Under the pieces are notes generated by a model. The model was not told the origin of the DNA. It worked only from the letters and a program-made list of their open reading frames with translations, and did not search any database. A stretch of 27,077 bases of DNA from the IMG/VR virus record IMGVR_UViG_3300045988_105798, positions 1 to 27,077 of that record. One strand, written 5' to 3'. Position numbers and translations under genes: made by a program. Each line of letters begins with the position of its first letter. Position 1 is the stretch's first letter. This stretch comes from a virus. Shown here piece after piece: positions 1-27,077 of this stretch.

Positions 1-55
1 ATAGATGCTTCAAAAATTACATCTGGGGTAATTGATATTGAACGTCTACCCAAAG
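1..55. repeat. Exact 55-nt terminal overlap with 27023-27077 (circular closure of the contig)
   Basis: Both copies read atagatgcttcaaaaattacatctggggtaattgatattgaacgtctacccaaag. The overlap lies inside, and in frame with, the tail fibre ORF. Confidence 0.95.
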
Positions 56-1821
56 GAGCGTTAGAGAGATTAGTTATTGTTGCTAATCAATCAGAACGAT
101 ACGCATTAACTGCTGATGATGTTCAGGAAGGAGATACTGTAAAACAAGAAGATACAGGTGTACTGTATTTTGTTGTTGATATTGATAACCTAGCTAATGA
201 AAACGGCTACTCTATTTATACAGCGGGATCAGCAACTAGTGTACCTTGGTCAGGAGTGACAGGTAAACCTGATTTAGTTAACTCAGTTAAGTTAGTACTG
301 CCAAGTTCTATATTCACTAATTCTGGCAGTATACTTACAGGAAATGTAGAATTAGGATCATCTTTAAGTCCACAAACTGCTAATACAGTGTGAGCAGCTC
401 CAAGTGGCACATCTGGGGTACCAACATTTAGGAAATTAACTTTCCTAGATATGAATATAGTAGCGTCAGATGAATTTAACTATATACCACAGACATTTAA
501 AGGAGGAAGGCTAGTAATTAATCATAAAAACTCTGCTGGGGAGCAAAATACTAACAATACTATAACAGAATACCAATTTAAGGATGGGGCCAGTAATCTT
601 ACATACATAACAGCAAAAGGTTTTAAAACTTCGGAAAATCAGGAGCACAGGGTATTATGTTCAGATGGGTCTTCTAAATTCTTGTATGGACCATCAACTC
701 CTGGAACAGCAGGACAAGTATTAGTTTCAAATGGGACATCAGCTCCTGAATGGGGACAAGTACCTATAACTAGTATAGGAGGGCCTACTGGTGACACTAC
801 AACTTCTGATGATGTACCATATGGAATTACTCCATATATTGGAGAGTATCGTTCTGATAAATTAGCGTTTATAAAAAGTACTGATTTATATGGAGAAATA
901 AGTAAAAACAACGGAGAATTGTGAACTGAAGATCCTCAGGGGAGTAGTAGACTTATAAATTTATTTACTTCACAAGATAATAAGTATGGTCTACAATTAA
1001 TAGATACAGAAGATGTTAGCGTAACTACTCAATATAGACTTACTATAACTAATAGTGATAGATATTGTACCATTGATTGGATATATATATATATGTCTAC
1101 TAATGGTTCTGCTTATAATTGCTTCATTGAAGCATATAATCCTAGTTCTGAATCTTGAGATATAATATCTCAGGATGCTAGTTTACAGGGATGATCTGGA
1201 CCTAATTTTAGAGCTTTGACGTCCTCTCTATGTTATAACTATTCACCTAGAACATCCTCTCAATATTCAAAGCTAAGGTTTACATTTTCAACTAAAAGTA
1301 TTAGTGAAAAACATAGTGGGCAATTGACAGTCTATAGAATTTCTGGATATGGTATTTATGGCTGAATAATGCCTAACAATATGTCTCAAGTCGGTCAACT
1401 TTATTCTTGAGATAATGCTCAAAATGCTTCTTTTCCAGGAAGTGTATCGGCTATAAAATTTATCAGTGATGGAGGTACTAGTACTAATGTAACGATGGGA
1501 GATGGATCTCTAAAAGATCTTAAAACTAAACAATTAGTTGTAAACGGTACTATAAATAACTTTTATTCATCAGATAGTGTTGAGGTTAGACTTTATGCTC
1601 CTACTTCAGGTGGTACTAGTGGGCAGATTCTTGTATCTAATGGTAGTAATACTCCTAAATGAGCATCCTTAGATAGTTTAGGTATTCAGCCTGCTGGAAA
1701 CTATATTGAAGCTGGAGCTGGAACCCAACCTCAAATAAATACGATTACTGTTCTAACTCAATCAGAATATGATGGTTTATCAACAAAAGATTCTAATACT
1801 CAATATTTAATAGTTGAATAA
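1..1821 (+). CDS. Tail fibre protein, 3' portion. The gene starts at 25340 and continues across the circular junction.
   Basis: Frame 1 is open from base 1 to TAA 1819-1821 when TGA is read as Trp (in-frame TGA at 391, 922, 1156, 1192, 1363, 1408, 1660). It is in phase with the 25340 ORF through the 55-nt overlap. It has fibre-like motifs (IDASKITSGVIDIERLP). An internal repeat pair reads GQVLVSNGTSAPEW(TGG)GQV and GQILVSNGSNTPKW(TGA)ASL. Confidence 0.8.
1081..1094 (+). repeat. (AT)7 dinucleotide microsatellite inside the tail fibre ORF
   Basis: The sequence atatatatatatat encodes ..W-I-Y-I-Y-M... Confidence 0.9.
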
Positions 1822-1822
1822 T

Positions 1823-1936
1823 ATGAACGTAAAGACCGATTTAAAGGGATTTTATGTAGGTAACAGAAAGGGTATTGCCATTTATGTTGGCAGTACCCAA
1901 ATCTGGCCTGCAACGACTACAACTTCTAATAAATAG
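1823..1936 (+). CDS. Hypothetical small protein (37 aa)
   Basis: ATG lies 1 nt after the fibre stop and the ORF ends at TAG 1934-1936 (MNVKTDLKGFYVGNRKGIAIYVGSTQIWPATTTTSNK). Support is tight packing only. Confidence 0.35.
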   Translation: MNVKTDLKGFYVGNRKGIAIYVGSTQIWPATTTTSNK

Positions 1937-1944
1937 TCCTAATT

Positions 1945-2172
1945 ATGATATTACTAAAGAATTCCAAAAATACGCAGACTTTCTATATTGCCAAAAAGAC
2001 TGGAATAGAAAAAGGTCAATTACCCATTGGTAGTTATTCAAAATTAGAAGTAGATGCTTTATTTCAACCAAAAGGAGACTATATAACTGCTAATGAGTAT
2101 AATAACAAGATCAACGAGCTAGAAGCAACAATACAAGAGTTACAGAGTAAGTTAGCAGATTCTGATAAATAA
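1945..2172 (+). CDS. Small fibre-associated coiled-coil protein (75 aa)
   Basis: Intact ORF. Its C-terminal heptad-like segment is NKINELEATIQELQSKLADSDK. The YSKLEVDALFQPKGDY segment resembles repeats in the main fibre. Confidence 0.5.
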   Translation: MILLKNSKNTQTFYIAKKTGIEKGQLPIGSYSKLEVDALFQPKGDYITANEYNNKINELEATIQELQSKLADSDK

Positions 2173-2241
2173 TGTCAGTATTTTTATTATAACTTAAAGT
2201 GAGTAAAAAACTTGACATTAAAGGAGACATTTGTCTCCTTT
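2171..2241 (+). promoter_or_regulatory. Conserved intergenic element, copy 1 (AATGTCA box, T-rich spacer, GTGAGTAAAAAACTTGACA, hairpin)
   Basis: The core motif is at 2199-2217. AATGTCA (2171-2177) is inverted relative to TGACATT (2213-2219). A hairpin, AAAGGAGA/TCTCCTTT, is at 2220-2241. The element lies 101 nt upstream of the 2318 start. Confidence 0.6.
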
Positions 2242-2317
2242 AATTTTATTACTGTATCTAAAGTATTTATATTTTAGAAAAAAGATATGTAAAATTAATG
2301 TAAAACTATTGCAAATT

Positions 2318-2710
2318 ATGTATTACACTCTATTAATTCAGAATACTGTGAGTAAAGAAGTATATACATATAATTTGGAGAATTTAAATTATGACGAAAA
2401 TATTTATTATAAGTTCAATATTGTGTTGGATGATAATACACCTGACGGAGAATACCAATATCTGTTATTTGAGAATCCAAATCAAATTGAAGTTGTAGTA
2501 AACTATAATAACGTCTATGATAGCAAGTTATATGGAGATACTAAAATATTAGTAACGTTTACTAATACACTTACTAATGGAACTCAGATATTAATTGCTG
2601 GTAAGCCTATTATGTGACTATCTAGTGGATTAATAAGAATAGGAGGCTATAAATCTAATAATTATCAATATAATAAACAAAACAAATACCAAGTATATGA
2701 CAGAAAATAA
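2318..2710 (+). CDS. Hypothetical protein (130 aa)
   Basis: Start taken at ATG 2318 (MYYTLLIQ...). In-frame TGA at 2615-2617. The ORF ends at TAA 2708-2710. Confidence 0.55.
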
Positions 2711-3779
2711 GAAAAGTTTGAAGATGTCGGCCATAGATCCATATATTGTAAGTAACATAGTAGAGCCTACAGAAAGTAAGAAAAGAGGATCAGATATGAT
2801 AATGTGAGGCGATAATAATTGCTATCCTGTTTACTTATGGGATCTATATTTAAACTGTGCAACATTACAGTCAATTATCAACGGAACTGCCGATTTTATC
2901 GTTGGAGACGATGTTATTTGTAATAAAGATGGATTTAACGTAGTTGTTAATAAGAAAGGTGAAACTATAGTAGACCTCTTTAGAAAGATAGCAATAGATA
3001 AGATGATTTTTGGAGGATATGCTGTTCAAGTAATTAGAAATATGATTGGAGAAGTCAGTGAGATTTATCACTTAGACTTTATGAAGATCCGTTCTAATGA
3101 AAAGAATACAGTTCTTTATTATGCAGATGATTGGGAGGCTTGGTCAGTTAAGGCTTTAACTTATCCTAAATATGAGATAAACGATAGTGCTCCTTCTTCT
3201 GTAGTTTATAATAAAGGCTATGTAACAAGAAGTGTATATCCAATTCCAGTTTATGGAGCTGCTCTATTAAGTTGCGAAACTGAGAAGTGTATTAATCAAT
3301 TCCATTTAAATAATCTTAATAATGGATTTATGAGTAATCTTATTATCAACTTTAATAATGGAACTCCTACAGATGAAGCACAAGAAGAGATTGAACGTAC
3401 TATTAACGAGAAGTTCTCTGGATACCAAAATACTGGACGTATTCTTATTTCTTATAATGATTCAGATGTAAATAAGACTACTGTTGAAAGACTTGATTCT
3501 GATGATTTCGATGAACGATATGAATCATTAGCAACTAGAACAAGAGAGCAAATATTCTGCGCTTTCAGAGCTAATCCAAATCTTTTCGGAATTAACTCAG
3601 ATTCTACAGGATTTAATATGCAAGAATTTGAATCAGCATTTAGACTTTATAATAGAACTATGGTTAAGCCAATACAGAAAGAGATGTGCGATACTTTTGA
3701 TAAGATCTTTAATATGAAGAACTCTATAACAATAGTTCCATTTACATTAGATACAGCAGACTCTAAAACAATCGAATAA
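2697..3779 (+). CDS. Portal protein (360 aa)
   Basis: ATG 2697 is in the same frame as track ORF 3003-3779 through TGA 2805-2807 (..DMIMW GDNNCYPVYLWDLYLNCATLQSIINGTADFIVG..). The overall pattern resembles phage portals, but this was judged by eye only. Confidence 0.65.
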
Positions 3780-3781
3780 TT

Positions 3782-4429: not shown

Positions 4430-4430
4430 T

Positions 4431-4874: not shown

Positions 4875-5531
4875 ATGGAAAACAAATTAAAATGATTCGG
4901 ACAGGTACTTGATTGAGTTAATAAATACGGGTTATGACAGATTATAAAAGGCGGATTTGCATTTATATTTGTATCTTATGTCTTTATAATCTCTCTAAAT
5001 CCAGGCATTATATATGATAAGGTTGTTACTTACATAGAAAAGGTTCATAACGTTAAGCAAGTAACCAGACAAGATGCAGACATCAAAATACGTTACATCT
5101 TGAAAGATTTAAGATTATCTACAAATGCAGATAGAGCTTGAGTTATTGAGTACCATAACGGTACATCTGGATTAGGAGGACTTCCATTTACATACGGAAT
5201 TATGAACAATGAAGAATTAGAAGAAGGAGTAAATTCAGTGTCTAGACATTATAGAGACTTCTTGTTATCTGAGTATTTGTTTATTTTGGAGACTTCTAAA
5301 CAAGGTGGATGAATAGGTAGTGTTGAGGATATAAAACAGTATGATACAAAAATGTACTATTCGTTTAAATCTAATGGTGTTAATAAATTAGCTTTATTTT
5401 ATTTAAAATCGGAATACAGAGATATTGGAGTAGTCGGCCTTTCATATTGTGATAATGAGATGCCAGAAGATACTTGAGTTAAATTAAGAGATGCAGGAAT
5501 AAAAATAAGCATAATTTTAAATAAAGAGTAA
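4875..5531 (+). CDS. Membrane-anchored protein with a possible GAF-like soluble domain (218 aa)
   Basis: ATG 4875 to TAA 5529-5531 is one frame with six in-frame TGA codons. It has an N-terminal hydrophobic helix (IIKGGFAFIFVSYVFIISL). It is invisible in the standard-code ORF track. Confidence 0.6.
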
Positions 5532-5532
5532 T

Positions 5533-5694
5533 ATGAAGTATTGGGTAAAGTATTTAATCGCAGTTGTGATAATTATTGCAGTTTTGGTATTAGTAAAAGT
5601 AATTCCTTTCTGGATTACTATGGTATTACTTGCTTTAGCAGTAGGTAGCCATTTATTTTACAGATATCTAACACTTAAAGACATTATAAAATAA
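5533..5694 (+). CDS. Holin candidate (53 aa, two hydrophobic helices)
   Basis: Sequence is MKYWVKYLIAVVIIIAVLVLVKVIPFWITMVLLALAVGSHLFYRYLTLKDIIK. Its stop overlaps the endolysin start (TAATG). Confidence 0.55.
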   Translation: MKYWVKYLIAVVIIIAVLVLVKVIPFWITMVLLALAVGSHLFYRYLTLKDIIK

Positions 5695-6143
5695 TGAAGT
5701 ATTTTACAGTAGAGGAGTTAACTGAATCATCTACAGCAATTAAGGAAAATATAGACAACACTCCAAGTAAGGAGATCACTGAACACCTGATTGAGTTAAT
5801 AGAGGAACTCTTAGATCCTATTAGAGAAAAATGGGCAGAGTATTGTAATATTAATAAACTTGGAAATCCAGCAATAAGTGTAAGTTCAGGTTATAGATGC
5901 AAAGAGCTTAATAAAGCTGTAAATGGTTCAGTTACATCTGCACATATGACTGGTTATGCTGCAGACCTTCAAAATGTCTCTGGAAGTAGAGAAGAATTTT
6001 ATCAATTCCTATTAAACTTTTTGAAGGATAGAAATTTCGATGAATGTTTTAGTGAATATAATAAGTACACTAAGTGAATACACATAGCATTATATAATAG
6101 TAAAAAATTACAAAGAAAAAAAGTAGGTAAATTATATGTATAG
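5694..6143 (+). CDS. Peptidase M15 (LAS-type zinc D-Ala-D-Ala/L-Ala-D-Glu peptidase) endolysin
   Basis: It has the SGYRCKELNKAVNGSVTSAHMTGYAAD motif (H-x6-D zinc motif). The ORF continues through TGA 6075-6077 into W-I-H-I-A and ends at TAG 6141-6143. Confidence 0.8.
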
Positions 6144-6276
6144 TATCTATGTTCATATAAATAAATTAAATCATAAAATGCATAGTAAACCAATACGGGC
6201 AATTAATGAAGATGAGGTTTTGGAGTTCGATTCTGTATCTAAAAAAGCCTATGGTTATAGGTGAGAATATATTTAA
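6136..6276 (+). pseudogene. Homing-endonuclease remnant (46 aa)
   Basis: Sequence is MYSIYVHINKLNHKMHSKPIRAINEDEVLEFDSVSKKAYGYRW(TGA)EYI. It has a GIY-like start fused directly to the C-terminal G-Y-x-W tail typical of free-standing homing endonucleases. The catalytic core is missing. Confidence 0.4.
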
Positions 6277-6289
6277 GATAAAATAAAGT

Positions 6290-6320
6290 AAGGGAGCCTT
6301 TTGAGCTCCCTTTTCTTTTT
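6290..6320. terminator. Bidirectional intrinsic terminator between convergent arms
   Basis: The stem AAGGGAGC (6290-6297) pairs with GCTCCCTT (6305-6312) and is followed by ttttcttttt. An A-run lies upstream. Confidence 0.7.
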
Positions 6321-6419: not shown

Positions 6420-6554
6420 TTAGTCAATATATGTTGCGTTAGGAATCTCTGGTTTTTCTTCTACTTCTTCCCAAACTAAACCTCTATTCTGGTTTTCTAG
6501 TTGAACTATTCTGTATTCTAGTTCTTCAAGCTTTTTAAATAAATAATCATCCAT
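6420..6554 (-). CDS. Hypothetical small protein (44 aa)
   Basis: Sequence is MDDYLFKKLEELEYRIVQLENQNRGLVWEEVEEKPEIPNATYID. Trp is encoded by TGG. Confidence 0.45.
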   Translation of the reverse strand: MDDYLFKKLEELEYRIVQLENQNRGLVWEEVEEKPEIPNATYID

Positions 6555-6556
6555 AA

Positions 6557-6712
6557 TTAATCAAATTTAGAAATAAACATATAATCTTTATCTTTTAATA
6601 CTTTATCTATAATATCACCAAATCTTTTAGTAGCCTCTTTACATTCGAGCATTCATTTATCCAATTCTTTAATATACTCTTCTGTTTCTTTAATTGTTTC
6701 TTTAATATCCAT
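6557..6712 (-). CDS. Hypothetical small protein (51 aa under code 4)
   Basis: Sequence is MDIKETIKETEEYIKELDKW(TGA)MLECKEATKRFGDIIDKVLKDKDYMFISKFD. Under the standard code it would split at TGA-ATG into 19-aa and 31-aa ORFs. Confidence 0.4.
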
Positions 6713-6784
6713 AATTAAAATATTTTAATAAATGTCTATTTTTTACTCAACTAATGTATATAGATAAAAATAAAAATAGACATA

Positions 6785-8503
6785 CTAATTTTTAAAGACA
6801 TACTTTTTACCTATAATAGTATATCCATAAGATCTGTTTCCATTCACTGATTTTTTAGTTACCTTAACTTCATAATATTTTGTAATATCAGTAGCTTTAG
6901 CATTAGTTTTATTAACTAAATCATAAGCTTTTTGTAGTATCTTTTTAATATCAGTATTAGAATACCACATACCTAAAGTTATATTTTGATTAAGTTTATT
7001 TGCTACTTTATTATCTACAGATTTATCTGAAGTTTTAATAAGTTCATCTTTTATTTTAGTAATACAGTATTTTAGAGTGGCCATTTTATTGAATCCAAGT
7101 TTAGTAATAGCATCCATTAACCAAGGGTATTTAATAAGAGCATCATCTAATTTTGGGGTGTTTACCTTATATAAGGTTTCATATTCCTCTCTTACTTCTT
7201 TAATTATATCTTTAAATGCTTTTGTTTTAGTATTTAGATCTATTTTTATAGAATTATCATATTGTTCTACCACTTTATTAAATCCTTTATTAATATATTC
7301 CTTAGAAAGATTAGCTCTAGCAGAATACAGTCCTCTAGATACTTTAAAATTAAATAAATCAATTTTAGCCATATTAGGGTCAAATTCAAATACATCATCC
7401 CAATTTAATTTAATGTATGCATCAGAAGTAAATTCTCTAAGTTTCTTTTTAGCTATCTCTGGAAGTTTATTGTATGCTTCTACAGCAATTTTAGTTTCTT
7501 CAATATTCTGGATATTAAGCTTTTTAAATTCTTCATAAGATATATCAGCATATCTTGTTGTAGAATAAATGTGAGTTATCCAATTAATATATTTACTATT
7601 TCTAATTCTACCAGCAATCTGCTGTATAGAAGTTGATATATCAAGTAATGTATTAGCTTTACTTGGATCAGATATAATTATTATCCTTCCATTTTCATCA
7701 TAAATATCTGAACCTTCAAATACAGTTGAAGTTAATAAGTTGATCTTTTTAGGTTCATCTAAGACTGTTGAATTAGGAATTGACAGTTTAGTTTTATTGT
7801 TTTTGGAATATATAACTCTGGTATTATTAGATGTTAATTTGGCTTTCTTAATAAGGTTCTTTATAAAGTCTACTGAATTAACGAATATGTAGGCGTTACC
7901 TTCAACCTGTCCGTTTAAAAATCCATTTATAAGTTTAATAGTAGAAGCTTCTACATTATCACATTTAACAGTTTGCACTTTTACATCTATAACATCATCC
8001 CATTCCTGCTTTACTAATTCTAAATCTTTTAATTCATCTAATACAAACTCTTCCTCTAAAGGTGTTGCTGTCATAAATGTAAAATTACCAAATAATTTAT
8101 AATATTTAAGCACTGATTGAATAGCAGAGCTTCTAAAGCTATACTGATTAAAGAGAATATGATATTCATCAATTAAAATGCTAAACTCTTTAGGATTAAT
8201 TGCAGAAATAACTTTATAAAGAGAATCATAGGTAACAATGATTTTAGGGCATTTAACACTATCTACATAATCTTTAATCTCTTTAATAGTAACACCAGCA
8301 TAAACTCCAAATATCTTCTCAGTACGTCTTTCATTTGGATATTGTTGAAGTTTATTTTCAACTAAGCTAGTAAATGGAACACAAATAACATAAGGCTTAT
8401 TGCATTCAATTGCCATTGAAGTTCCTCCACATCCAACTTTTCCTTTATCAAATAAGCAGTTAGTTGGCAACTCATTAATAATTTCATTTAAATATGTTTT
8501 CAT
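6785..8503 (-). CDS. Superfamily-2 DExH helicase (572 aa)
   Basis: Start taken at MKTYLNEII (8503). It has a P-loop-like GKVGCGGTS, ILIDEYH (DExH), MTATP (motif III) and QQIAGRIRN (motif VI). It has no in-frame TGA, and all 5 Trp are TGG. Confidence 0.8.
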   Translation of the reverse strand: MKTYLNEIINELPTNCLFDKGKVGCGGTSMAIECNKPYVICVPFTSLVENKLQQYPNERRTEKIFGVYAGVTIKEIKDYVDSVKCPKIIVTYDSLYKVISAINPKEFSILIDEYHILFNQYSFRSSAIQSVLKYYKLFGNFTFMTATPLEEEFVLDELKDLELVKQEWDDVIDVKVQTVKCDNVEASTIKLINGFLNGQVEGNAYIFVNSVDFIKNLIKKAKLTSNNTRVIYSKNNKTKLSIPNSTVLDEPKKINLLTSTVFEGSDIYDENGRIIIISDPSKANTLLDISTSIQQIAGRIRNSKYINWITHIYSTTRYADISYEEFKKLNIQNIEETKIAVEAYNKLPEIAKKKLREFTSDAYIKLNWDDVFEFDPNMAKIDLFNFKVSRGLYSARANLSKEYINKGFNKVVEQYDNSIKIDLNTKTKAFKDIIKEVREEYETLYKVNTPKLDDALIKYPWLMDAITKLGFNKMATLKYCITKIKDELIKTSDKSVDNKVANKLNQNITLGMWYSNTDIKKILQKAYDLVNKTNAKATDITKYYEVKVTKKSVNGNRSYGYTIIGKKYVFKN

Positions 8504-8721: not shown

Positions 8722-8753
8722 CAAATATACAACATATTTTTTCAATTTCCAAA
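8722..8753 (-). promoter_or_regulatory. Bacteroidota-type promoter (minus strand): TTTG-N20-TATATTTG
   Basis: CAAATATA at 8722-8729 and CAAA at 8750-8753 on the + strand read as TTTG-N20-TATATTTG on the minus strand. Confidence 0.6.
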
Positions 8754-8800
8754 TTTTTGAGGTATTATTTTCATAAAAATTTTTCTCGTATTTCGATATA

Positions 8801-8831
8801 CAAATATAATAATAATTTTTTAATCTGCAAA
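8801..8831 (-). promoter_or_regulatory. Bacteroidota-type promoter (minus strand): TTTG-N19-TATATTTG
   Basis: CAAATATA lies at 8801-8808 and CAAA at 8828-8831 on the + strand. Confidence 0.55.
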
Positions 8832-8832
8832 A

Positions 8833-8864
8833 TTTGCATATTAAATATAAAATACTTATATTTG
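8833..8864 (+). promoter_or_regulatory. Bacteroidota-type promoter (+ strand): TTTG-N20-TATATTTG
   Basis: TTTG is at 8833-8836 and TATATTTG at 8857-8864, 46 nt upstream of ATG 8910. Its -33 element is back-to-back with the minus-strand -33 element inside the palindrome TGCAAA-A-TTTGCA. Confidence 0.6.
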
Positions 8865-9725: not shown

Positions 9726-10017
9726 TGAAATTTTAGAAAAGTATTATCCATTTATTTTGGAATTAAAGCATAAGTTTGGAGCTAATGATGATTGTACTCA
9801 AATGATATGTATAGACATACTGGAAACACCTCATTCTAAACTCCAAAGTCTTCATAATAAGAATGAATTAAAATATTGAATTACCAGAGTATTTAAAAAC
9901 TACTGGTTTTCTAAAAATAGTAGATATTACTATCAATATAAGAAATATTATGAGATAGTTAAGGAACCTATTGAACAGCAAATTATCGATGAAGAAAACT
10001 ATGCAGAAGAAGATTAA
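9715..10017 (+). CDS. Sigma-70-family region-2-like protein (100 aa)
   Basis: ELKYW(TGA)ITRVFKNYWFSKNSRYYY resembles ECF sigma region 2 (WL..IA.N...d..R). It has an acidic C-terminal linker and ends at TAA 10015-10017. Confidence 0.45.
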
Positions 10018-11284: not shown

Positions 11285-11351
11285 TAATTATGAAGTTAGT
11301 GATATGGGAGAGTAACACTTTCTTGTGGTTTTATATGAAGGTATAAATAAT

Positions 11352-16184: not shown

Positions 16185-16186
16185 TT

Positions 16187-19100: not shown

Positions 19101-19630
19101 AGTATATATCATTTGACGATTCAGATCCAATAGTAGATTATCAAGCTGGAACTAAAAAGATTACAGTTACTTCTAATATTCCTTGGGAATTAGGATGATA
19201 TAGTCCAAATGAAATTGTAAGCATTACACCTGAATCTGGACAACCTGGAGAAACAGAATTGACAGTTACATATAATGAGAATACTACATATAATCAAAGG
19301 AGTTTCTATTTTAGTCTTTATAAACAAGGAGGCGTAGATGGTTCTCAATGTATGTTTACTCAAACTCCAGACCCAAATAAAGCTGTTCTTATTACAGGAA
19401 AGCTTCAAACTTCTACTGGAGGTATTCCTTCTGGTGTTAATCAGATTCTAACTGAAAATGATAATTTCTTAAATGACACTTATATGAGAGATGATGGAAG
19501 TTATAGAATATATGCTCAAAATGGAGTTCAATTTTTATTTAGAGTATCTGACGGACCAACAGGAACAGTTAAATATACAGAGAATTTAACACTAACAGAA
19601 GATACTGTTAAAAACGTAACTATAAACTAA
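16187..19630 (+). CDS. Very large tail tip/baseplate protein (1,147 aa)
   Basis: Five track ORFs (16187, 17378, 18131, 18830, 19259) share one frame. They are joined through TGA at 17066, 17213, 18122, 18464, 18614, 18782 and 19196. The C-terminal Ig/BACON-like module reads SITPESGQPGETELTVTYNENTTYNQRSFYF. Confidence 0.7.
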
Positions 19631-19631
19631 T

Positions 19632-21965
19632 ATGGCTGAAGAAATTAAAAAAGTAATTAGTGTAGATACTAAAACCAGTTCAAAGTCGATCAAGCAGCTA
19701 CGAGAAGAAGTAGCTGGCTTGACGGCTGAACTTGAAGATCTTGAGATTGGTAGTACTGACTATACTAAAAAGCTTGAAGAACTTGTTAATGTTCAAAATA
19801 AGTTAGGTGTTGCTACAGAATCTATGCAAGGTAAAACTGTAAATGCAGTTAAGGCGTTTGACAGTATCAATCAAGTAGCAGGAGGTTTAGCTGGAGGAGT
19901 TTCAGCTGTTAGTGCAGTATTCACTTTATTTGGAAAAGATACAGAGAATCTTCAAAAAACTATGGTTAAATTGCAAGCAGCAATTGCTATAGTTCAGGGA
20001 ATTGGAGGATTAAAAGGTTTAGGTGAAGGTATTCTTAATGGAGTAAAATCATTTAAAGCCTTATCTGTAGCAATGGGTGGTGCTACGGCTGCAACTGGAG
20101 GATTATCTGTAGCAATGGGTGTGCTACGGTCTGCAATTATATCTACAGGAATTGGAGCTTTAGTTGTAGCTCTTGGTATGTTAATAGATTTTGCAATTAA
20201 AGCAGCATCAGGAATTGATGATTTAAAAATTAGTATTTCTGGTTTAAAAGATATAACTGATCAATGAGGAACAAGTTACGCCAGAGCTAATACTGAAATT
20301 GCAGGATTGGAGAGACAAAGAGAGAGAGAGTTAGCTGCTGGTAAAAAAAGTGAAATACAAATTTGGAAAGATTATGCTGAAGAATTAGGAGATTTAGGTG
20401 CTGAATTATTTCATCATTTTGGCAGTGTAACTAAAGCATATTCTGACTCATTTACTAATATACTTAAAAGTAATGAATACTTCAAAAAAGAATTTAAGAA
20501 ATCTGGATATGAAACTTGGGAAAATTATTCCAAAGCAATACGATGAGGATTAAAGACTAGTTCTAATGAAGTTGATTTCTTTTTAAGTAAGTTAACTGAT
20601 GCTCAAAAAGCGGCTTATGAGGAAGCTTCTGGTATTTATAATACATATTTTGAGAAGCTAAATGATTTAATGCAAAAATCTGCTGCAGCTTATGAAAAAG
20701 TTAAGTTAATGGAGATTGCTGCAGAACGTAAGCAGAGAGAAGAAGCTAAAGCCCAGTATCTAAAGAAGATAGAAGAAAGAAAGAAACATAATCAAGATCT
20801 GCTTAAAGTTATTAACGATTTCTATGAAGAAAATAGGAAACTTCTTTTAGATGATGAAGCAAGAGAACTTGATGAATTAAATAGAAACTACCAGAATCAA
20901 TTAGAGGCACTTAAAGAAGCCTATAATCTCAAATTACTAACAGTTAAAGAATATAATGAGAGATTAAAGCAGTTAAATGATGCATATAATAAAGAGTGAC
21001 TAGATAATAATAATGAACGTTATAGAGAAGACTTAGAAAATAGATTATCTGCATTACAAGAAATGCAAGATAGGGAATCTCAATTATTTGCAAATAAAGA
21101 GGCTGCATTATCTGCAGGTAAATCTGGAAGTTATGAAACTAGAGTTCAACAATTTGGTTCAACGGATTTTTATCAATCTGGAGAAGATGTTCAAAGACAA
21201 TATCAAGATACATTAGCTTATAATGAACAGTTATATAATCTCACTAAAGATAGAATTACAAGAGAGAATGAATTGATGTCTCAACAGCAAGCTATTTTAG
21301 ATGAGCAATATAACAATAAGCTGATAACTGAACAAGAATATGCCAATCAATCTCAAGCAATTAAATTACAGCAAGAAGCTAATGATATAGCTTTATCAGA
21401 AGCAGCTAATGCAAGAGAAGAAGCAGATCTTCAAGCATTTAAAGATAGACAAGCTAAAAAGCAACAGGCTATTCAAGCTACTATGAATGTAGCTTCTTCT
21501 TTAAGTGGAGCTTTAGCTAATGTATTTAAACAAGAAGCTAGTGATGATAAAAAATCAGAGAAGCAAAGAGAGAAATCCTTTAAAGTTTATAAAGCATTAG
21601 CTACTACTCAAGCTATTATTGATACTATCAGTTCTGCCCAAGGTGCATATAAAGCTATGGTGGGTATTCCATTTGTAGGACCTATTCTTGCTTCTATTGC
21701 AGCTGCTACTGCTGTTATAGCTGGTATTGCTAATGTAAAAGCTATCCAAAATGAACAATTACCTTCATCTGGAGGTTCTGGAAGTGATGCAGGAACTACT
21801 GCTCCTGCTGCTTTAAATACTGCTCCTGTAGAATATACTCGAAACTTACTTGGCAATAAAGAGACTGATGAATTGAATCAACCAGTTAAATGTTATGTAG
21901 TTGAGAGTGATATTACTACTGCTCAAACTAAAGTTGCAGTTACAGAATCAAATGCAAGTTTCTAA
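19632..21965 (+). CDS. Tape-measure-like protein (777 aa)
   Basis: Four same-frame track ORFs are joined through TGA at 20265, 20544 and 20997. It has long coiled-coil stretches plus Gly/Ala-rich hydrophobic segments (GGLAGGVSAVSAVFTLFG; VGIPFVGPILASIAAATAVIAGIANV). Confidence 0.65.
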
Positions 21966-21983: not shown

Positions 21984-22028
21984 GCCTACTATGTAAGTTA
22001 CTGTAAATCAGTGCTTATATAGTAGTGC
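21984..22028 (+). terminator. Long imperfect hairpin after the tape-measure gene
   Basis: GCCTACTATGTAAGTTACTG pairs with CAGTGCTTATATAGTAGTGC. It is preceded by a partial motif GTGAGTAAA (21967-21975) directly after the stop codon. Confidence 0.4.
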
Positions 22029-22102
22029 AATGTCAAAATTTTATTTATCTTAGATACCTGTGTGAGTAAAAACTTGACAGTTATATTCTATATAAATATA
22101 AT
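22029..22102 (+). promoter_or_regulatory. Conserved intergenic element, copy 3, containing a perfect TTGACA-N17-TATAAT
   Basis: AATGTCAA is at 22029-22036 and GTGAGTAAAAACTTGACA at 22062-22079. TTGACA (22074-22079), a 17-nt spacer and TATAAT (22097-22102) follow. The element lies 81 nt upstream of ATG 22160. Confidence 0.6.
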
Positions 22103-22159: not shown

Positions 22160-22753
22160 ATGGGAAATATGTATAACGAACTGCCACTATACCAAGCAGT
22201 AATAACTGACGATTTTGATGGCATAGAATATGTAGCTTTAACATCAAAGCCAGCTACCCAAGTAAACTGGGTTGCATTTAATAACTCTTTGAAATTCTCT
22301 ATGGATGAAGATCAACATATTGTAACTTCTTGTTTAATGGTATGTGATATGCCAATTTTTAGACGAGATGACAATTTGGGAGAATATTATATCCAATATA
22401 ATAAAGAGACTTTAAGAGCAATGGCTGAGAAGATGATGAGGGATAAAAGAACTGATGCTGTTAATATAGAGCATTTAGAAGATTCTTCGATTCCTGGAAT
22501 TGTACTACAAGAACTTTACATTAAAGATGAGAAACGAGGAATTTCTCCCATAGAATTCAAAGATGTGCCTGACGGTTCTTTATTTGTAACTTACAAAATA
22601 AATAATCCTATTATTTGGGATGCTATTAAAGCTGGAAAGTTCAAAGGCTTCTCTATTGAAGGCTTATTTACTTTAGAACGTAAGGATGATGAATATACAG
22701 AACTTAAAGAGATACAAAGAATGTTGAAGAAGATAAAACGAATTAAAAAGTAA
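22160..22753 (+). CDS. Prohead protease candidate (XkdF-like) (197 aa)
   Basis: It sits ahead of the scaffold and capsid genes. The pattern ..NIEHLEDS...FVTYKINNPIIWDAIKAGKFKGFSIEG resembles XkdF-type phage proteases. It has no TGA. Confidence 0.5.
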   Translation: MGNMYNELPLYQAVITDDFDGIEYVALTSKPATQVNWVAFNNSLKFSMDEDQHIVTSCLMVCDMPIFRRDDNLGEYYIQYNKETLRAMAEKMMRDKRTDAVNIEHLEDSSIPGIVLQELYIKDEKRGISPIEFKDVPDGSLFVTYKINNPIIWDAIKAGKFKGFSIEGLFTLERKDDEYTELKEIQRMLKKIKRIKK

Positions 22754-22756
22754 ACT

Positions 22757-23338
22757 ATGAGCAAATTCACTAAAATCAAATTAGAGCTTGCCAAAATGTT
22801 GGCAAAATTCAGTGATCTGAAAACTTCAAAGGGAGTCTTAACTTGGGATTCTGACGAAGATCTTAAAGCTGGAATGGATGTTTATGTAATGGATGAGAAT
22901 GGCGAATACGCTCCTGCTGCTGATGGTGATTATGTTACCGAAGATGGTCAAACTATCGTAGTTAAGGAAGGTCGCGTTGAATCGATTACTGATCCCAAAG
23001 CTGAAGTAGATCCAGAAGAAGGAATGAGCACTGTTGAGGTAGCTGCTGAGGAAGAAGTTGCAGATCCTATGGTTCAAACTGATGGTGTTAAAGAAAGTGA
23101 AACTGATGCCATTGATGCAATTCATAGAGAGATTAATGAGCTTTATGACATTGTAGACAAACTTACAAAGAAGGTTGCCGAGCTTGAAGCAAAAGGAACT
23201 GAAACAAAAGAGACTGTTGAGAAAATGAGCAAAATGAGTGCTGCTTTCTCTGCAGAAGAAGAGATTGAAACAAAGCGTACTACTCCTACAAGTGGCAATG
23301 CAGAAATAGATAGAAAGCTTAAAAACTTTATTGGTTAA
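22757..23338 (+). CDS. Scaffolding protein candidate (193 aa)
   Basis: It is acidic with a coiled-coil segment (INELYDIVDKLTKKVAELEAKG) and lies immediately upstream of the capsid gene. It has no TGA. Confidence 0.55.
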   Translation: MSKFTKIKLELAKMLAKFSDLKTSKGVLTWDSDEDLKAGMDVYVMDENGEYAPAADGDYVTEDGQTIVVKEGRVESITDPKAEVDPEEGMSTVEVAAEEEVADPMVQTDGVKESETDAIDAIHREINELYDIVDKLTKKVAELEAKGTETKETVEKMSKMSAAFSAEEEIETKRTTPTSGNAEIDRKLKNFIG

Positions 23339-23359
23339 TAATTTAAAAATTAATAATTT

Positions 23360-24262
23360 ATGAATCCTGTAATGACTTCTTTGACTGCTTATGTTGAGCA
23401 GCGTAGATTACCTCTTATTAAAGAGGCTGTATTAAAAGCTAAGAGTGCTAGTTTATTTAACTTACAGACTGATATTAAAACTTCAGCTGCTCTTAACTTA
23501 CTTTCAACTGATGTTGAATTTGGAGATGGTCTGACTTGTGGATGGGATGAGGCTGGAACGCAGACTCTTTCACAACGAGTTCTTACGACTGGAAATATCA
23601 AGATTAATATGGCTTATTGCGACAAAGCTATGCTTAAATATTGGACTCAGTATCAGGTTCGCGTTGCTGCTGGTCAGAAAACGCTTCCTTTCGAAGAGGA
23701 CTTTATTAGTGGTGTAGTTGAGAATGTTAAAGCCTCTATTGAAACCGCTATCTGGCAAGGTGATACTACTTCTCAGACTAATAACCTGAAGTACTTTGAT
23801 GGTCTGTTAAAGATCTTAAAAACTGCTACTGGTACTGTTGATGTAAAGATTACTGGTACTTCTGCTTACGATGACATTATGGCTGTTTATAACGCTATTC
23901 CTGAGAAAGTACTTGATGGTGCTTCTATCTTAGTAGGCGCTGATACCTTCCGTAAATTCGTCCAGGAGTTAGTTGCTAAGAACTACTACCATTATAGTGG
24001 TGAGAATCTTAACGGTGAGATTATGCTTCCTGGTTCGCAGGTTAAAGTAATCGCTGTTAATGGTCTTAACGGAACTGACCAGATCGTTGCTGGTCAGCTT
24101 GACAAGAACTTCTTCTATGGCTGCGATATGATGAATGACGAAGAGAAATTCGAAATGTGGTATTCGCAGGATTTCAGAGAATTTAGATTAGCTATTGAAT
24201 TTAACGCTGGTGTACAAGTGGCGTTCCCAGATGAGATCGTACTTGGTGCAAAAGCTGAATAA
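23360..24262 (+). CDS. Major capsid protein (300 aa)
   Basis: It follows the protease and scaffold genes and has a typical size. Its codon usage is visibly less AT-rich. All 4 Trp are TGG. Confidence 0.75.
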   Translation: MNPVMTSLTAYVEQRRLPLIKEAVLKAKSASLFNLQTDIKTSAALNLLSTDVEFGDGLTCGWDEAGTQTLSQRVLTTGNIKINMAYCDKAMLKYWTQYQVRVAAGQKTLPFEEDFISGVVENVKASIETAIWQGDTTSQTNNLKYFDGLLKILKTATGTVDVKITGTSAYDDIMAVYNAIPEKVLDGASILVGADTFRKFVQELVAKNYYHYSGENLNGEIMLPGSQVKVIAVNGLNGTDQIVAGQLDKNFFYGCDMMNDEEKFEMWYSQDFREFRLAIEFNAGVQVAFPDEIVLGAKAE

Positions 24263-24317
24263 ATAGATAATTACATAAAACAATATTAAAAAATCAGGCC
24301 GAAAATCTCCTACTTTT

Positions 24318-24686
24318 ATGAAATATACTGGAATGATTTATCTTATTCAAAATAACATTACACAAAAAGTGTATGTCGGACAGACAACAAGAGACATTGA
24401 AACTAGATTTAAGGAGCATTGTAGAAGATCAAGTAACTGTAAAAAACTATCGAATAGTATAAATAAATATGGTAAAAATAATTTTTCTATTATTGAGTCT
24501 ATGATTCAGGCTAAAGCAAAAATTATTTATCAATATAATTTAGATGGTAGTTTTGTCAGATGCTGACCTTCTGCAAGGTCTGCAGCTAGACATTATGGCT
24601 CAAGTAAGAGACATCATATTACAGATGTATGCTCTGGTAGACGTAAATCTGCCTATGGGTTTTTGTGGAGTTTTGCAGAGGAATAA
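24318..24686 (+). CDS. Compact GIY-YIG homing endonuclease (122 aa)
   Basis: It reads GMIYLIQNNITQKVYVGQTTRDIETRFKEH (GIY...YVG...R..E). It has TGA at 24564-24566 and the tail GFLW(TGG)SFAEE. It is inserted between the capsid and major tail genes. Confidence 0.7.
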
Positions 24687-24745
24687 GAAAGACATATAAA
24701 GGTTTTATGTGGAAATACGAATAATTAATAAAATTTAATAAATAT

Positions 24746-25264
24746 ATGGCTTGCTTAATAACGCTTAATGGAATTACACTTGATTGCCAGCCTTCGTTAG
24801 GTGGTATCAAAAGAGTTTGGATTACTCAATATTCAGATGTAAAATCTGTAGTTGTAGGTGATGACAATATGATTGAAAGTATCACTTTAGAGGGTGAAGC
24901 TCAATGGTATGAGTATCAGTTCCGTAAGGCTACTGGTTCTTTAACCTCAACTTTGAATGTTGACGAATCCGCAGGAGTTAACTATGTAAGTAATGAGTTA
25001 GCTCTTGTATTTACAAAGATGGAAACTGCTAAGAGAATTGAAATTGCAGCTTTATCGATCGGTCAGCTTGCAGTTGTTGTTGAGGATAGTAATGGTCATT
25101 ACTGGTTCCTTGGTAAAGATGATTATGTAAGCGCTTCTGCAGGTACTGGTATTACTGGTACAGCAAAAGGGGATCAGAATGCTTATACTCTGACTCTCTC
25201 TACTGATTCGGATTCTTATCCTTATGAGTTGTCAGCAGAAGCTATTGCTGCAATAGTTGGATAA
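24746..25264 (+). CDS. Major tail protein candidate (172 aa)
   Basis: The size and the pattern GGIKRVWITQYSDV...WYEYQFRKATGSLTS...NGHYWFLGKDD..TGTAKGDQNAYTLTL are typical of siphovirus tail tube proteins. It has no TGA. Confidence 0.55.
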   Translation: MACLITLNGITLDCQPSLGGIKRVWITQYSDVKSVVVGDDNMIESITLEGEAQWYEYQFRKATGSLTSTLNVDESAGVNYVSNELALVFTKMETAKRIEIAALSIGQLAVVVEDSNGHYWFLGKDDYVSASAGTGITGTAKGDQNAYTLTLSTDSDSYPYELSAEAIAAIVG

Positions 25265-25270
25265 TCAGAT

Positions 25271-25310
25271 TAAGAGCGGGTAATTAATTTTACTTGCTCT
25301 TATTTTGTTT
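25271..25310 (+). terminator. Intrinsic terminator after the major tail protein gene
   Basis: TAAGAGCGGGTAA pairs with TTACTTGCTCTTA and is followed by ttttgttt. Confidence 0.6.
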
Positions 25311-25339
25311 ATAGACATTAATAATAAAAATTATATAAT

Positions 25340-27077
25340 ATGGAAAATCTATTACCCTATTTAAATGTACTTGAGGCAGACACTATTACAAGAGATAATG
25401 TAACCAAAGCCTTAGTAATAGATAAAGATGATAATATAGCTCTTTTAAATGGAGAAGATTTAGGAACTAATAATTATCAAGATCTGCAAAATAAGCCCTC
25501 TTTAAATGGTAAGACTTTAGAAGCCTCAACTAATATAGTTCCAGCAATACAGGTTCAAGCAATACCTACTAAATTGACTATTACTCCATCTTTAGGCAAT
25601 CAAACTGGACAAGCAGTTGAACTTCCTGGATATGATACAAGTACTAATGCTTCTGGTATTTTAACATCTCAAGTATTTGGTATTCTTAATGATAAGTATA
25701 CTAAAGAAGAAATAGACAATATTAACAGTGCGATTAATACAGCTATTTCTAAAAAACAAGATAAATTAACAGCAGGAGCTAATATACGAATTGTAGATAA
25801 CGTTATATCTGCCTTTAATAATCATTTATTCTTACATTTAGATGAAAATGATACAGAACATCAAGCTTATGTATATTCTTTTATTAAGTCTAATTTAGAG
25901 TTCTATTTATTTGCTGAGATCACTTACGAAGGCAAAGTAGTAGTTCTTCCTTTAGTTGCCATTGAAAACAACGAATCGTTATATTTAAAAGGAATGTATC
26001 TTAAAGATGATTCTACAATCGTTGAGGTATCTGCAGTTTTAGTAGCTAATGGTAACATAAGTGTTAATACTTCTGAAATATCAATATCTGATTATAACCA
26101 GTTGACAAATAAGCCACAGATTAATTCAGTAGAATTGTCTGGAAATAAAACCCTTGCTGATCTTGGTATTCAAGCTGCAGGTAATTATGCTTTAAAGAGT
26201 GACATTCCAACTAAAGTAAGTGAATTACAAAATGACTCTCAATTTGTAACTGAAACAGCATTAACAGACGGATTAGCTCCTAAAGCAGATAAGACTTATG
26301 TTGATGAACAATTAGCTCTTAAAGCTGATTCTACTACAGTTGAATCTTTATCTGGAGAAGTAGCTACTAATAGTACAGATATTAGTACTTTAAAGAGTAC
26401 AGTTGCAGAGAATGGTGAAAAGATTGATTCTCTTGATAAAGAGATGGCTACCAAACAGGATACTCTTGTTAGTGGAGAATCAATTAGAACAATTAACAAT
26501 CTTTCTTTATTAGGAGATGGTAATATTAATGTAGGTGATGTTCCTTCTATTACGGTAGAAAATGAACAAATACCAAATGAGACAGATTTTAATAGAGTTG
26601 CAGAAGCTGCAGCAAATGATAGAGCAGTTTTAATTAGAATTAAAACTGCTGAAATGACGTTACCCTCTAATTATTGACAGTATTCCTCTTCAGAATCTCA
26701 GAGAGGCTTTGTTGCTTATGCAACATATTTATCAGGAACTAATAACATAACTCTGATTGCATATATTCTAGAAAATCAACCAGTTATGGTAGGAACTGAG
26801 ATTGAAGAATTACAAGAAGAGTTAGTTTCTGGAACTAATATTAAAACTATTAATGGTGAAAGTATCCTAGGATCAGGTAATATAGACACTCCAGATAGTA
26901 AGGTTACTAGTGCTGCAAATCACTACACTCCTGTTGGAGGGAGTGCTACATCTGGAACTATTATAAATTCTATTACTAAGGATGAGAAAGGACATATTGT
27001 AGATATAGGGGTTGCTAATGGTATAGATGCTTCAAAAATTACATCTGGGGTAATTGATATTGAACGTCTACCCAAAG
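25340..27077 (+). CDS. Tail fibre protein, 5' portion (continues at base 56 of the window because 27023-27077 duplicates 1-55)
   Basis: ATG 25340. An in-frame TGA lies at 26675-26677 and the frame stays open to the window end. It has fibre repeats (YQDLQNKPSLNGKTL / YNQLTNKPQINSVELSGNKTL; GESIRTINNLSLLGDGNIN / GTNIKTINGESILGSGNID). The full gene is about 3,504 nt. Confidence 0.8.

Follow-up and report, generated by a model that had tools for sequence, protein, structure and literature searches.

A closed 27-kb phage genome from the human gut in which TGA encodes tryptophan and no suppressor tRNA is detected

Recoding of TGA in phages that carry no suppressor tRNA is a known puzzle. A suppressor tRNA was reported in 35% (bioRxiv 10.1101/2021.08.26.457843) or 15% (PMC11210395) of TGA-recoded phages and, among complete phages, in 3 of 17 TGA-recoded genomes compared to 225 of 303 TAG-recoded ones (bioRxiv 10.1101/2022.06.29.495998). 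Thus, the absent suppressor is the rule for TGA-recoded phages (65–85% have none) and not an oddity of the genome described here, and the original prediction that recoded phages commonly carry such a tRNA holds poorly for TGA. The much lower frequency of suppressors in TGA- than in TAG-recoded phages hints at a route of TGA decoding that requires no tRNA gene.

The closest described systems are the Agate and Jade clades (Borges et al.) and the opal-recoded crAss-like phages (Yutin et al.), most of which have no detectable suppressor tRNA. The phage studied here resembles them in being a gut phage with low GC content and TGA read as Trp, in having a replication gene in the standard code and a heavily recoded gene in the lysis cassette, and in having a close standard-code relative depleted of TGA. 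It differs from them in size (27 kb and about 30 ORFs, whereas Agate genomes have about 127 kb and the crAss-like phages of Borges et al. about 105 kb), in its main head proteins, where TGA is avoided and not enriched, and in the occurrence of TGA already in regulatory ORFs beside the early promoters. It adds another case to this class, and its small genome makes it a clean one for solving the puzzle.

Phages of wall-less Bacillota hosts likewise read TGA as Trp and have neither a suppressor tRNA nor a release-factor gene; unlike them, our phage contains a peptidoglycan peptidase, Bacteroidota-type promoters and no SD sites, and combines low TGA usage with gene-specific TGA avoidance. In-frame TGA is also found in code-25 phages of Absconditabacteria and Gracilibacteria, which match the unusual code of their hosts and can do without their own suppressor, whereas here TGA is Trp and not Gly, and the host signals point to Bacteroidota and not to Patescibacteria. 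In Hirsh-type suppressors and in the readthrough of the Q-beta coat protein gene, UGA is read by the near-cognate tRNA-Trp(CCA). Decoding of UGA as Trp without a UCA-anticodon tRNA is also known from Candidatus Zinderia, Blastocrithidia and ciliates (4-bp anticodon stem tRNA-Trp(CCA)), and in such near-cognate systems the efficiency is set by competition with release factors. However, these precedents concern either the codes of cells or individual leaky sites, while in our case about 50 viral sites would rely on a host tRNA.

The analyzed stretch of 27,077 nucleotides (hereafter, the window) has identical first and last 55 bases, positions 1–55 being an exact repeat of positions 27023–27077. 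It is a complete closed phage genome with a unit of 27,022 bp and a 55-bp end overlap. The same phage was found as 27,149-bp contigs in two human gut metagenome assemblies; their length would correspond to 27,022 bp with an overlap of 127 bases, and the contigs of the two samples, assembled independently, encode an identical capsid protein. It is an uncultured tailed phage from the human gut with a GC content of 0.30. The end repeat, together with code-4 ORFs tiling the genome, bears out the earlier view of a closed recoded genome. Non-coding DNA occupies only about 1.5 kb; the non-coding stretches recognized originally were correctly placed and are AT-rich (GC 0.20–0.27), and gaps at 1822–1944, 5532–5693 and 6713–6784 are to be added to them.

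Readthrough of TGA increases the longest stop-to-stop ORF from 616 to 1,159 aa. In-frame TGA codons are present in about 20 of 30 ORFs, i.e., in about two thirds of the genes, and their number is 46–50 compared to 59–61 TGG codons, the range being set by the choice of start codons. TGA makes up 44% of Trp codons in the window, and codons ending in A account for 70–90% for Lys, Glu, Gln, Leu and Arg in the same genome. Comparison with 34 relatives revealed that TGA of the window is found opposite TGG 121 times and TGG of the window opposite TGA 111 times, while at orthologous sites in these relatives TGA is never opposite a glycine codon (GGN). When the TGA sites were aligned with standard-code relatives, W or Y was present in 53 of 88 aligned residue counts and Gly in one. 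In-frame TGA encodes Trp in this phage, and a code-25 phage (TGA = Gly) can be rejected, since TGA is exchanged with TGG only and Gly is virtually missing from the aligned positions. It is formally conceivable, though vanishingly improbable, that the in-frame TGAs are not translated and that the genome is degraded, misassembled or contains frameshifts or introns. However, dozens of independent assemblies keep these sites as Trp, with TGA and TGG replacing each other, and this explanation would mean that none of the essential genes (TerL, portal, tail) is intact. All phage genes terminate in TAA or TAG, so that RF1 alone suffices for termination. The base following TGA does not differ from that following TGG (p = 0.44), so that selection for leaky contexts of termination is not apparent; this fits better with an efficient dedicated decoder.

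The use of TGA depends on the gene class. Tail and packaging genes, all on the plus strand, are recoded: the tail-fibre gene (25340–27077, continuing across the window end to 1821; 1,167 aa), whose code-4 translation runs over the junction and whose identical product has a Phage_tail_C domain, contains eight in-frame TGAs; three large tail genes at 14004–21965 (726, 1,147 and 777 aa), with TGA/TGG interchange in the relatives, contain four, seven and three; and all three Trp codons of the large terminase gene (11325–12596; Pfam Terminase_6C and 6N) are TGA. The portal gene (2697–3779, plus strand; Phage_portal, E 9e-15) has a single TGA, and standard-code relatives have W or Y at this position. 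Also heavily recoded is the plus-strand gene at 4875–5531, directly upstream of the endolysin gene, in which six of six Trp codons are TGA (TGA fraction in the clade, 0.55); judging from its sequence and position, its product is a putative membrane-spanning protein that may act in lysis. The endolysin itself (5694–6143, plus strand; Peptidase_M15_3, E 6e-17) has one TGA.

Quite a different picture is seen in the head module (22160–25264, plus strand; Pfam assignments), which comprises a protease, a scaffold, the major capsid protein (MCP, 23360–24262), a GIY-YIG insert and a 172-aa protein, and where TGA in the window is confined to the GIY-YIG gene. Across the clade, TGA accounts for 0 of 134 Trp codons in MCP, 0 of 21 in the scaffold and 1 of 94 in the 172-aa protein. 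The same is true for the only long minus-strand gene (6785–8503), which encodes an early 572-aa SF2 helicase-like protein; it is TGA-free in the window and nearly so across the clade (1 TGA versus 105 TGG in 22 relatives of 70–100% identity), which makes this early replication gene compatible with the standard code. Its AlphaFold2 model (pLDDT 81.7) resembles in Foldseek generic SF2 helicases, including the HSV-1 origin-binding protein. In the five avoiding genes, a grouping picked after the data had been seen, 13 of 15 Trp columns are TGG-only compared to 26 of 100 elsewhere (Fisher p = 1e-5). With TGA at less than half of all Trp codons and avoided in the helicase and head genes, its use looks costly for the phage. 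A syntenic sister genome, with an MCP 67% identical, contains no in-frame TGA, and three of its genes end in TGA.

TGA is nevertheless present close to the early promoters. Two small leftward ORFs of 44 and 51 aa lie next to the helicase gene on the minus strand (6420–6712), separated from the rightward late genes by a bidirectional terminator-like hairpin (6290–6312, both strands). According to the clade codon counts, the 44-aa ORF uses TGG only (TGA, 0 of 21), whereas TGA makes up 20 of 22 Trp codons of the 51-aa ORF across 22 relatives. The first rightward ORF (8910–9725, plus strand) encodes a NUMOD4/HNH homing endonuclease (Pfam) with four TGAs, for which no full-length homologue was found in the relatives. 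It is followed by two overlapping plus-strand ORFs (9715–10246) that resemble halves of an ECF-type sigma factor (weak NCBIfam sigma70-ECF match at model positions 4–100; also Sigma70 region 4 and HTH families), with one TGA in the window and clade TGA fractions of 0.31 and 0.54.

The search for a decoder encoded by the phage was negative. No tRNA was found in the window by ARAGORN with default settings, and Rfam/Infernal revealed no tRNA, tRNA-Sec or tmRNA in the whole window at E ≤ 10 and no tRNA-like RNA in five intergenic stretches searched singly with matches listed down to 9 bits. Pfam, PHROGs and NCBIfam contain no match to a release factor, aminoacyl-tRNA synthetase, deaminase or tRNA-modifying domain. 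The relatives are similar in this respect: no tRNA was present in 56 loci (about 0.94 Mb), and no Rfam family reached the gathering score in four relative genomes. The absence of a visible suppressor tRNA or release-factor gene, noted originally by eye, is thus confirmed by ARAGORN, Infernal and three protein-family libraries. The more sensitive ARAGORN run proposed in the original prediction (90% thresholds) returned a single UCA-anticodon call, a "tRNA-SeC(tca)" at 15066–15163 on the plus strand. It is a false positive, being below the default threshold, with mismatched stems, and lying inside the 726-aa tail gene (14004–16184); the "anticodon" is a Ser codon in the reading frame of this gene, and the relatives have synonymous variants of it (TCA/TCT/TCC). 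The T-loop-like string TTCGATT, considered earlier to be unique, indeed lies inside an ORF (of 46 aa) and does not belong to a tRNA, but it occurs four times (6226, 11901 and 22486 on the plus strand and 3776 on the minus strand), with a preceding G only at the copy of 6225.

A decoder RNA of non-canonical type (split, permuted or armless, lying within a coding region or matured from a longer transcript) might have been missed by tRNA finders, as suggested by Borges et al. (bioRxiv 10.1101/2021.08.26.457843) and Yutin et al. (PMC7886860) for phages without a detectable suppressor, and conserved intergenic hairpins at 2217–2244, about 13459–13479 and about 22005–22050 could be seen as candidates. 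However, the small amount of non-coding DNA, the lack of a tRNA-like match to these regions in Infernal even at 9–25 bits and the lack of a credible UCA candidate in relaxed, intron and mitochondrial modes of ARAGORN make this explanation very improbable. Furthermore, the hairpins resemble terminators or promoter-associated stems beside a repeated promoter-like motif, GTGAGTAAAAA(A)CTTGACA followed by a hairpin. Its first copy is at 2197–2217 on the plus strand, and further copies end at 13451 and 22079. The sequence AAAACTTGACA has three exact plus-strand copies, each of them intergenic and ahead of late operons, and is conserved in the relatives; the motif is a probable late promoter of the phage.

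The host is probably a member of Bacteroidales, as suggested by the promoters, the missing SD sites and the endolysin relatives. The Bacteroidota-type promoter pattern (TTTG, 19–20 nt, TAnnTTTG) has four matches in the window compared to 1.28 expected, and three of them are clustered within 8722–8864 (8722–8753 and 8801–8831 leftward, 8833–8864 rightward); the tandem pair upstream of the helicase gene is conserved in 17 of 17 relatives. The SD core is found upstream of only 1 of 28 genes, in a region containing 50% A. Among cultured phages, the best endolysin matches are phages of Bacteroides and Prevotella and crAss-like phages (40–45% identity). Homologues of the helicase were detected in a Hymenobacter chromosome and in prophages located next to BACON-domain genes, and the only distant relatives of MCP came from Bacteroidota MAGs. 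For Bacteroidota, no description of code 4 was found (PMC13462651, PMC13092985), and the host appears to use the standard code.

These data speak against the first of the earlier proposals, namely a host with TGA as a native Trp codon. Such a host could belong to Mycoplasmatales, to the gut Eggerthellaceae "MGR" clade or to an undescribed code-4 lineage, and nothing would then be recoded relative to it. This would agree with the wide distribution of TGA, including regulatory and presumably early ORFs, with the lack of code-change machinery (suppressor tRNA, RF1, TrpRS) in the ARAGORN, Infernal and protein-family searches, with the low GC of the phage, as gut Eggerthellaceae with code 4 and GC of 31–40% exist (PMC13462651), and with the observation that most cultured code-4 phages share the code of their host (PMC11210395). 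However, the host signals are of the Bacteroidota type and not those of a lineage known for code 4, and wall-less Mycoplasmatales are unlikely hosts because the phage carries a peptidoglycan hydrolase. TGA is also neither dominant nor distributed without regard to gene class: its share is far below the 80–90% of Trp codons in native code-4 genomes (bioRxiv 10.1101/2022.06.29.495998), and a native code-4 host gives no reason for its near-total exclusion from the helicase and MCP genes. We therefore consider a native code-4 host improbable. The other earlier proposals, a near-cognate host tRNA-Trp or external helper and an unrecognized mechanism, survive as candidates by elimination.

Since TGA is read as Trp, the phage has no decoder and the host code is judged to be standard, decoding has to be provided in trans, most likely either by host tRNA-Trp(CCA) that reads UGA with RF2 weakened or by a resident suppressor tRNA. 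Tentatively, we infer that the best explanation as a whole is a standard-code Bacteroidales host with near-cognate tRNA-Trp(CCA) as the decoder and weak or weakened RF2. The decoding capacity would already exist in the infected cell, with no decoder brought by the phage: the ordinary host tRNA-Trp(CCA), or a more permissive variant, would read UGA via C-A mispairing at the third position, and this reading would be productive because RF2 competition is weak or becomes weakened during infection, possibly by a TGA-free phage product. Such decoding may be slower or conditional, which would explain the exclusion of TGA from the early helicase, which has to be made first, and from those head proteins that are most abundant; TGA might be tolerated, or even favoured as a brake or timer, in genes for the tail, packaging, regulation and lysis. 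A permissive tRNA of this kind is known: tRNA-Trp(CCA) whose anticodon stem has 4 bp increases the readthrough of UGA in E. coli; Zinderia has no other tRNA for Trp, and Bacteroides oleiciplenus has it together with the normal form (PMC13092985). UGA suppression is limited by the strength of RF2 (bioRxiv 10.1101/2025.10.30.685624). An argument against near-cognate decoding is that 6–8 TGAs per gene demand a high per-codon efficiency, beyond ordinary readthrough of a few per cent.

This difficulty would not arise with a cognate tRNA-Trp(UCA) on which the phage depends and which another element of the cell supplies (the chromosome of the host, a prophage residing there or a recoded phage infecting at the same time), since an efficient cognate decoder fits both the lack of context bias after TGA and up to eight TGAs per gene. 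To account for the same mismatch, suppressors encoded by the host have been suggested for crAss-like phages (PMC7886860) and complete code-11/4 phages (bioRxiv 10.1101/2022.06.29.495998), and Sup-TCA tRNAs occur in other gut phages (bioRxiv 10.1101/2021.08.26.457843). We regard this explanation as fairly unlikely all the same: a host terminating genes at UGA should suffer from a UGA suppressor that is expressed constitutively, a phage that cannot do without a helper seems hard to square with a clade of about 600 IMG/VR matches, a UCA-anticodon tRNA was present in none of the fetched loci, and the avoidance of TGA in the helicase and capsid genes of the clade would still need explaining.

Returning to near-cognate decoding, the phage might itself carry a tRNA-free code switch, a TGA-free product that inactivates host RF2, sequesters it or changes the tRNA-Trp of the host. 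We consider this unlikely; if true, it would mean that a standard-code Bacteroidales cell reads UGA as Trp for the remainder of infection. The first ORFs in the rightward direction contain TGA, as does a small one in the early leftward operon; this implies that decoding is needed early and leaves few phage candidates for such a switch. The helicase family is also found in phages apparently using the standard code and in one TAG-recoded prophage, and is therefore not a TGA-specific factor. Candidates for the switch would be products of the early helicase operon, the 44-aa peptide among them, a Trp-free 106-aa Cys-rich protein and a protein delivered with the virion.

The first and last 55 bases of the window are identical. 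Contigs of 27,149 bp in two MetaHIT human-gut assemblies encode an identical capsid protein, and their extra 127 bases are read as a k-mer overlap on a circle of 27,022 bp. The GC content of the window is about 0.30. Under the standard code its ORFs are fragmented; reading TGA as a sense codon lengthens the longest stop-to-stop ORF from 616 to 1,159 aa and gives about 30 ORFs, nearly all on the plus strand, that tile the genome. All phage genes stop at TAA or TAG. We revealed genes for a tail fibre (25340 across the junction to 1821), portal (2697–3779), a Peptidase_M15_3 endolysin (5694–6143), an HNH homing endonuclease (8910–9725), the large terminase (11325–12596), three large tail proteins (14004–21965), head protease, scaffold and major capsid protein (22160–24262), and a GIY-YIG endonuclease (24318–24686). 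No close cultured relative was found (no DNA match, and no capsid match among cultured phages); the terminase matches to cultured phages have only 24–29% identity and, judged by sequence, carry no host information.

At the TGA sites of the window, 34 recoded relatives have TGA 242 times, TGG 121 times and TAT 23 times, and at its TGG sites they have TGA 111 times; Gly, Cys and Arg codons each account for less than 1% of the aligned codons in these relatives. In more distant standard-code relatives the TGA positions of the window are mostly occupied by Y or W, and by Gly once. The interchange with TGG and the alignment with Y/W thus show that TGA encodes Trp (code 4) and exclude Gly (code 25).

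The original prediction held that no suppressor tRNA or release-factor gene is present in this closed recoded genome, and this was borne out by ARAGORN, Rfam, Pfam, PHROGs and NCBIfam. No tRNA was found in the window by ARAGORN, and no tRNA, tRNA-Sec or tmRNA by Rfam, either in the whole window (E<=10) or in five intergenic stretches searched singly, where matches as weak as 9 bits were reported. Pfam, PHROGs and NCBIfam revealed no release factor, aminoacyl-tRNA synthetase, deaminase or tRNA-modifying domain. Similarly, 56 loci of recoded relatives (about 0.94 Mb) contained no tRNA, and no Rfam family reached the gathering score in four relatives covered end to end. The intron and mitochondrial modes of ARAGORN gave scattered low-grade calls, none of them credible with a UCA anticodon. 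A tRNA with this anticodon would have refuted the prediction; ARAGORN at 90% thresholds does call a ‘tRNA-SeC(tca)’ at 15066–15163, which turned out to be coding sequence. Its stems are mismatched, it lies in frame within the gene of a 726-aa tail protein, and its ‘anticodon’ is a Ser codon varying between TCA, TCT and TCC across relatives, in which the variation falls mostly at codon positions 1 and 3 and little at 2. The total non-coding DNA of the window is only about 1.5 kb; with a closed genome and about 30 ORFs this leaves a tiny search space for a phage-side factor, and a non-canonical decoder RNA hidden within it is a less likely explanation.

Several independent signals in the sequence point to a host from Bacteroidota, with gut Bacteroidales as the likeliest group. 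Where the lone leftward operon and the rightward genes diverge, there are three matches to TTTG-N19-20-TAnnTTTG, reportedly the promoter pattern recognised by the primary sigma factor of Bacteroidota (Bayley 2000; Vingadassalom 2005). There are four matches in the whole window (1.28 expected), and the tandem promoter pair upstream of the early helicase gene is kept in 17/17 relatives. Of 28 genes only one has a Shine-Dalgarno core of even 4 nt, and A makes up 50% of the bases upstream; near-absent Shine-Dalgarno motifs and A-rich upstream sequences are typical of Bacteroidota. The best matches of the endolysin among 50,697 phage records belong to Bacteroides, crAss-like and Prevotella phages (40–45% identity). 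Homologues of the helicase are located in prophages beside BACON-domain genes and also in a Hymenobacter chromosome. When GTDB species genomes were searched with the capsid protein, only two distant matches appeared, both in Bacteroidota MAGs, and no prophage of the clade. Code 4 has been reported in Bacillota, Pseudomonadota, Verrucomicrobiota, Actinomycetota and Patescibacteriota, and no report of it in Bacteroidota was found in the same sources (PMC13462651, PMC13092985); the host probably uses the standard code.

Two further observations concern the host. The 726-aa tail protein (14004–16184) has a sub-threshold BACON-domain match (E 0.033), which fits the Bacteroidetes link and is too weak as evidence. 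The record IMGVR_UViG_3300045988_175865 (148,631 bp), with a 97%-identical capsid gene, contains more than one head-to-tail copy of a ~30-kb phage. It is probably an assembly concatemer rather than a big phage genome or a prophage carried on host DNA.

In the window 44% of Trp codons are TGA, against 70–90% A-ending codons in other A/G-ending pairs; in native code-4 genomes 80–90% of Trp codons are TGA (bioRxiv 10.1101/2022.06.29.495998). When TGA was counted over all Trp codons (TGA + TGG) of each gene in the clade, it made up 1/106 in the early SF2 helicase, 0/134 in the major capsid protein, 0/21 in the scaffold, 1/94 in the 172-aa head-module protein and 0/21 in a small 44-aa ORF. The fraction was mostly 0.3–0.7 in tail, packaging and regulatory genes and 0.55 in the putative lysis protein (4875–5531), where all 6/6 in the window are TGA. 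Trp alignment columns with TGG only comprise 13/15 in the five avoiding genes vs 26/100 elsewhere (p=1e-5, with the grouping picked after the data were seen). The avoidance in the helicase is not a general codon bias, since its codon usage is otherwise ordinary and A-rich. TGA does not behave like a neutral Trp codon here. A native code-4 host, to which TGA would be a usual Trp codon, is a less likely explanation, as it offers no reason for TGA avoidance in the helicase, capsid and other avoiding genes; a host with conditional or slow UGA decoding does account for the pattern.

A 51-aa ORF of the early operon (6557–6712, minus strand), located directly 3' of the helicase gene, is in sharp contrast to its neighbours: its Trp codon is TGA in 20/22 counts (22 relatives). 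Besides the helicase gene (6785–8503), the ORFs at 1945–2172, 6420–6554 and 10591–10911 are free of TGA. The scaffold, capsid and 172-aa genes (22757–25264) have a GC content of 0.38–0.39 vs 0.30 for the genome, and in the latter two the codons for Lys, Glu and Gln end in G more often (A-fraction 0.44–0.50 vs ~0.7), which suggests selection for efficient translation.

Given a phage without a decoder and a host that probably uses the standard code, the reader of UGA must already be in the cell. We favour the host tRNA-Trp(CCA), which would read UGA as Trp, productively so if competition from release factor 2 (RF2) is weak or is weakened. The main rival is a cognate suppressor tRNA that comes from another element and likewise resides in the cell. 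The host tRNA-Trp(CCA) is favoured because all phage genes end in TAA or TAG and because the genes that avoid TGA are precisely those in which speed or early production counts. It is also favoured by the much greater rarity of suppressor tRNAs in TGA- than in TAG-recoded complete phages (3/17 vs 225/303; bioRxiv 10.1101/2022.06.29.495998), and by tRNA-Trp(CCA) variants that were shown to read UGA in bacteria, one such variant being present in a Bacteroides species (PMC13092985). Three points count against it. Genes with 6–8 TGA codons demand far more than ordinary readthrough can deliver; the base after TGA in the window shows no bias and does not differ from that after TGG, so that a leaky-termination context as an aid to readthrough was rejected; and TGA is present in ORFs adjoining early promoters.

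The TGA-free early protein of 572 aa has more than 1,000 homologues. Its AlphaFold model is confident (pLDDT 81.7), and Foldseek matched it to generic SF2 helicases, including the HSV-1 origin-binding protein; judging by this model, it would most simply be a replication helicase. The family also occurs in temperate phages with standard-code-looking gene calls and in a TAG-recoded prophage, and these homologues, together with the generic fold, led us to reject it as a code-switch factor. Its lack of TGA matches the published rule that replication genes of recoded phages stay in the standard code. The TAG-recoded prophage (ERZ28598220 scaffold_71, 132 kb) is located beside a tRNA-Thr gene, an integrase and host genes (GlnA, TerC; GC 0.39). 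Its helicase is 48% identical to that of the window, its presumed terminase ORF has 13 in-frame TAG, and no suppressor tRNA was seen in the 21.7 kb inspected.

The window phage belongs to a large gut clade with a syntenic standard-code sister, IMGVR_UViG_3300029905_000019 (30,128 bp, GC 0.27), whose capsid protein is 67% identical. The shared order runs from sigma-like genes through terminase, tail, head and portal to a lysis-region gene. The sister genes contain no in-frame TGA, three of them end in TGA, and no tRNA was found in this genome. It represents the stage that, in the proposal of Borges et al. (bioRxiv 10.1101/2021.08.26.457843), precedes recoding, with the code still standard and TGA depleted, and is a useful comparator for the origin of recoding. 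The helicase operon, the M15 endolysin and a window-type tail fibre are missing from it; one comparison cannot link any of these to recoding.

Earlier studies repeatedly described recoded phages in which no suppressor could be detected (Yutin 2021, PMC7886860, crediting Ivanova 2014; Borges 2021; Pfennig 2022; Cook 2024, PMC11210395). The question of how standard-code bacteria translate TGA-recoded phages that lack a suppressor tRNA has stood since 2014 and has come up again in several surveys. In most known cases a missed gene was always possible, as the genomes were large or incomplete. The window phage is an unusually compact addition to this class and no new kind of system; its small closed genome makes host-side hypotheses directly testable. 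Added here are the host-phylum inference, the absence of tRNA in the 56 examined loci of relatives, gene-specific TGA avoidance that includes the capsid gene, and the standard-code sister genome. If true, a protein- or host-tRNA-based switch would be a new way to change the genetic code, relevant to virome gene calling and genetic-code engineering.

Several other features of the genome should be mentioned. At 9715–10017 and 9971–10246 two ORFs overlap, the latter shifted to the +1 frame; they look like the two halves (region 2 and region 4) of an ECF-type sigma factor. The sister genome has the same split pair, which could encode a sigma factor in two pieces or involve a programmed frameshift. 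A motif of about 20 nt, GTGAGTAAAAA(A)CTTGACA, occurs in three copies on the plus strand (2197–2217, 13431–13451 and 22059–22079), each intergenic, ahead of a late operon and followed by a hairpin. It is kept in relatives and probably serves as the late promoter used by the sigma-like factor that the phage itself encodes. The ORFs at 12598–13257 and 13083–13400 lie in different frames, overlap by 175 nt and are both kept in the sister genome; the overlap may give a programmed frameshift product. Finally, homing-endonuclease genes are found at 8910–9725 (NUMOD4/HNH), at 24318–24686 (GIY-YIG/NUMOD1) and, as a 46-aa fragment, at 6136–6276, the C-terminus of which (YGYRWEYI) resembles those of the HNH and GIY-YIG endonucleases. 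They use TGA, are missing or only distantly matched in relatives, and appear to be mobile inserts.
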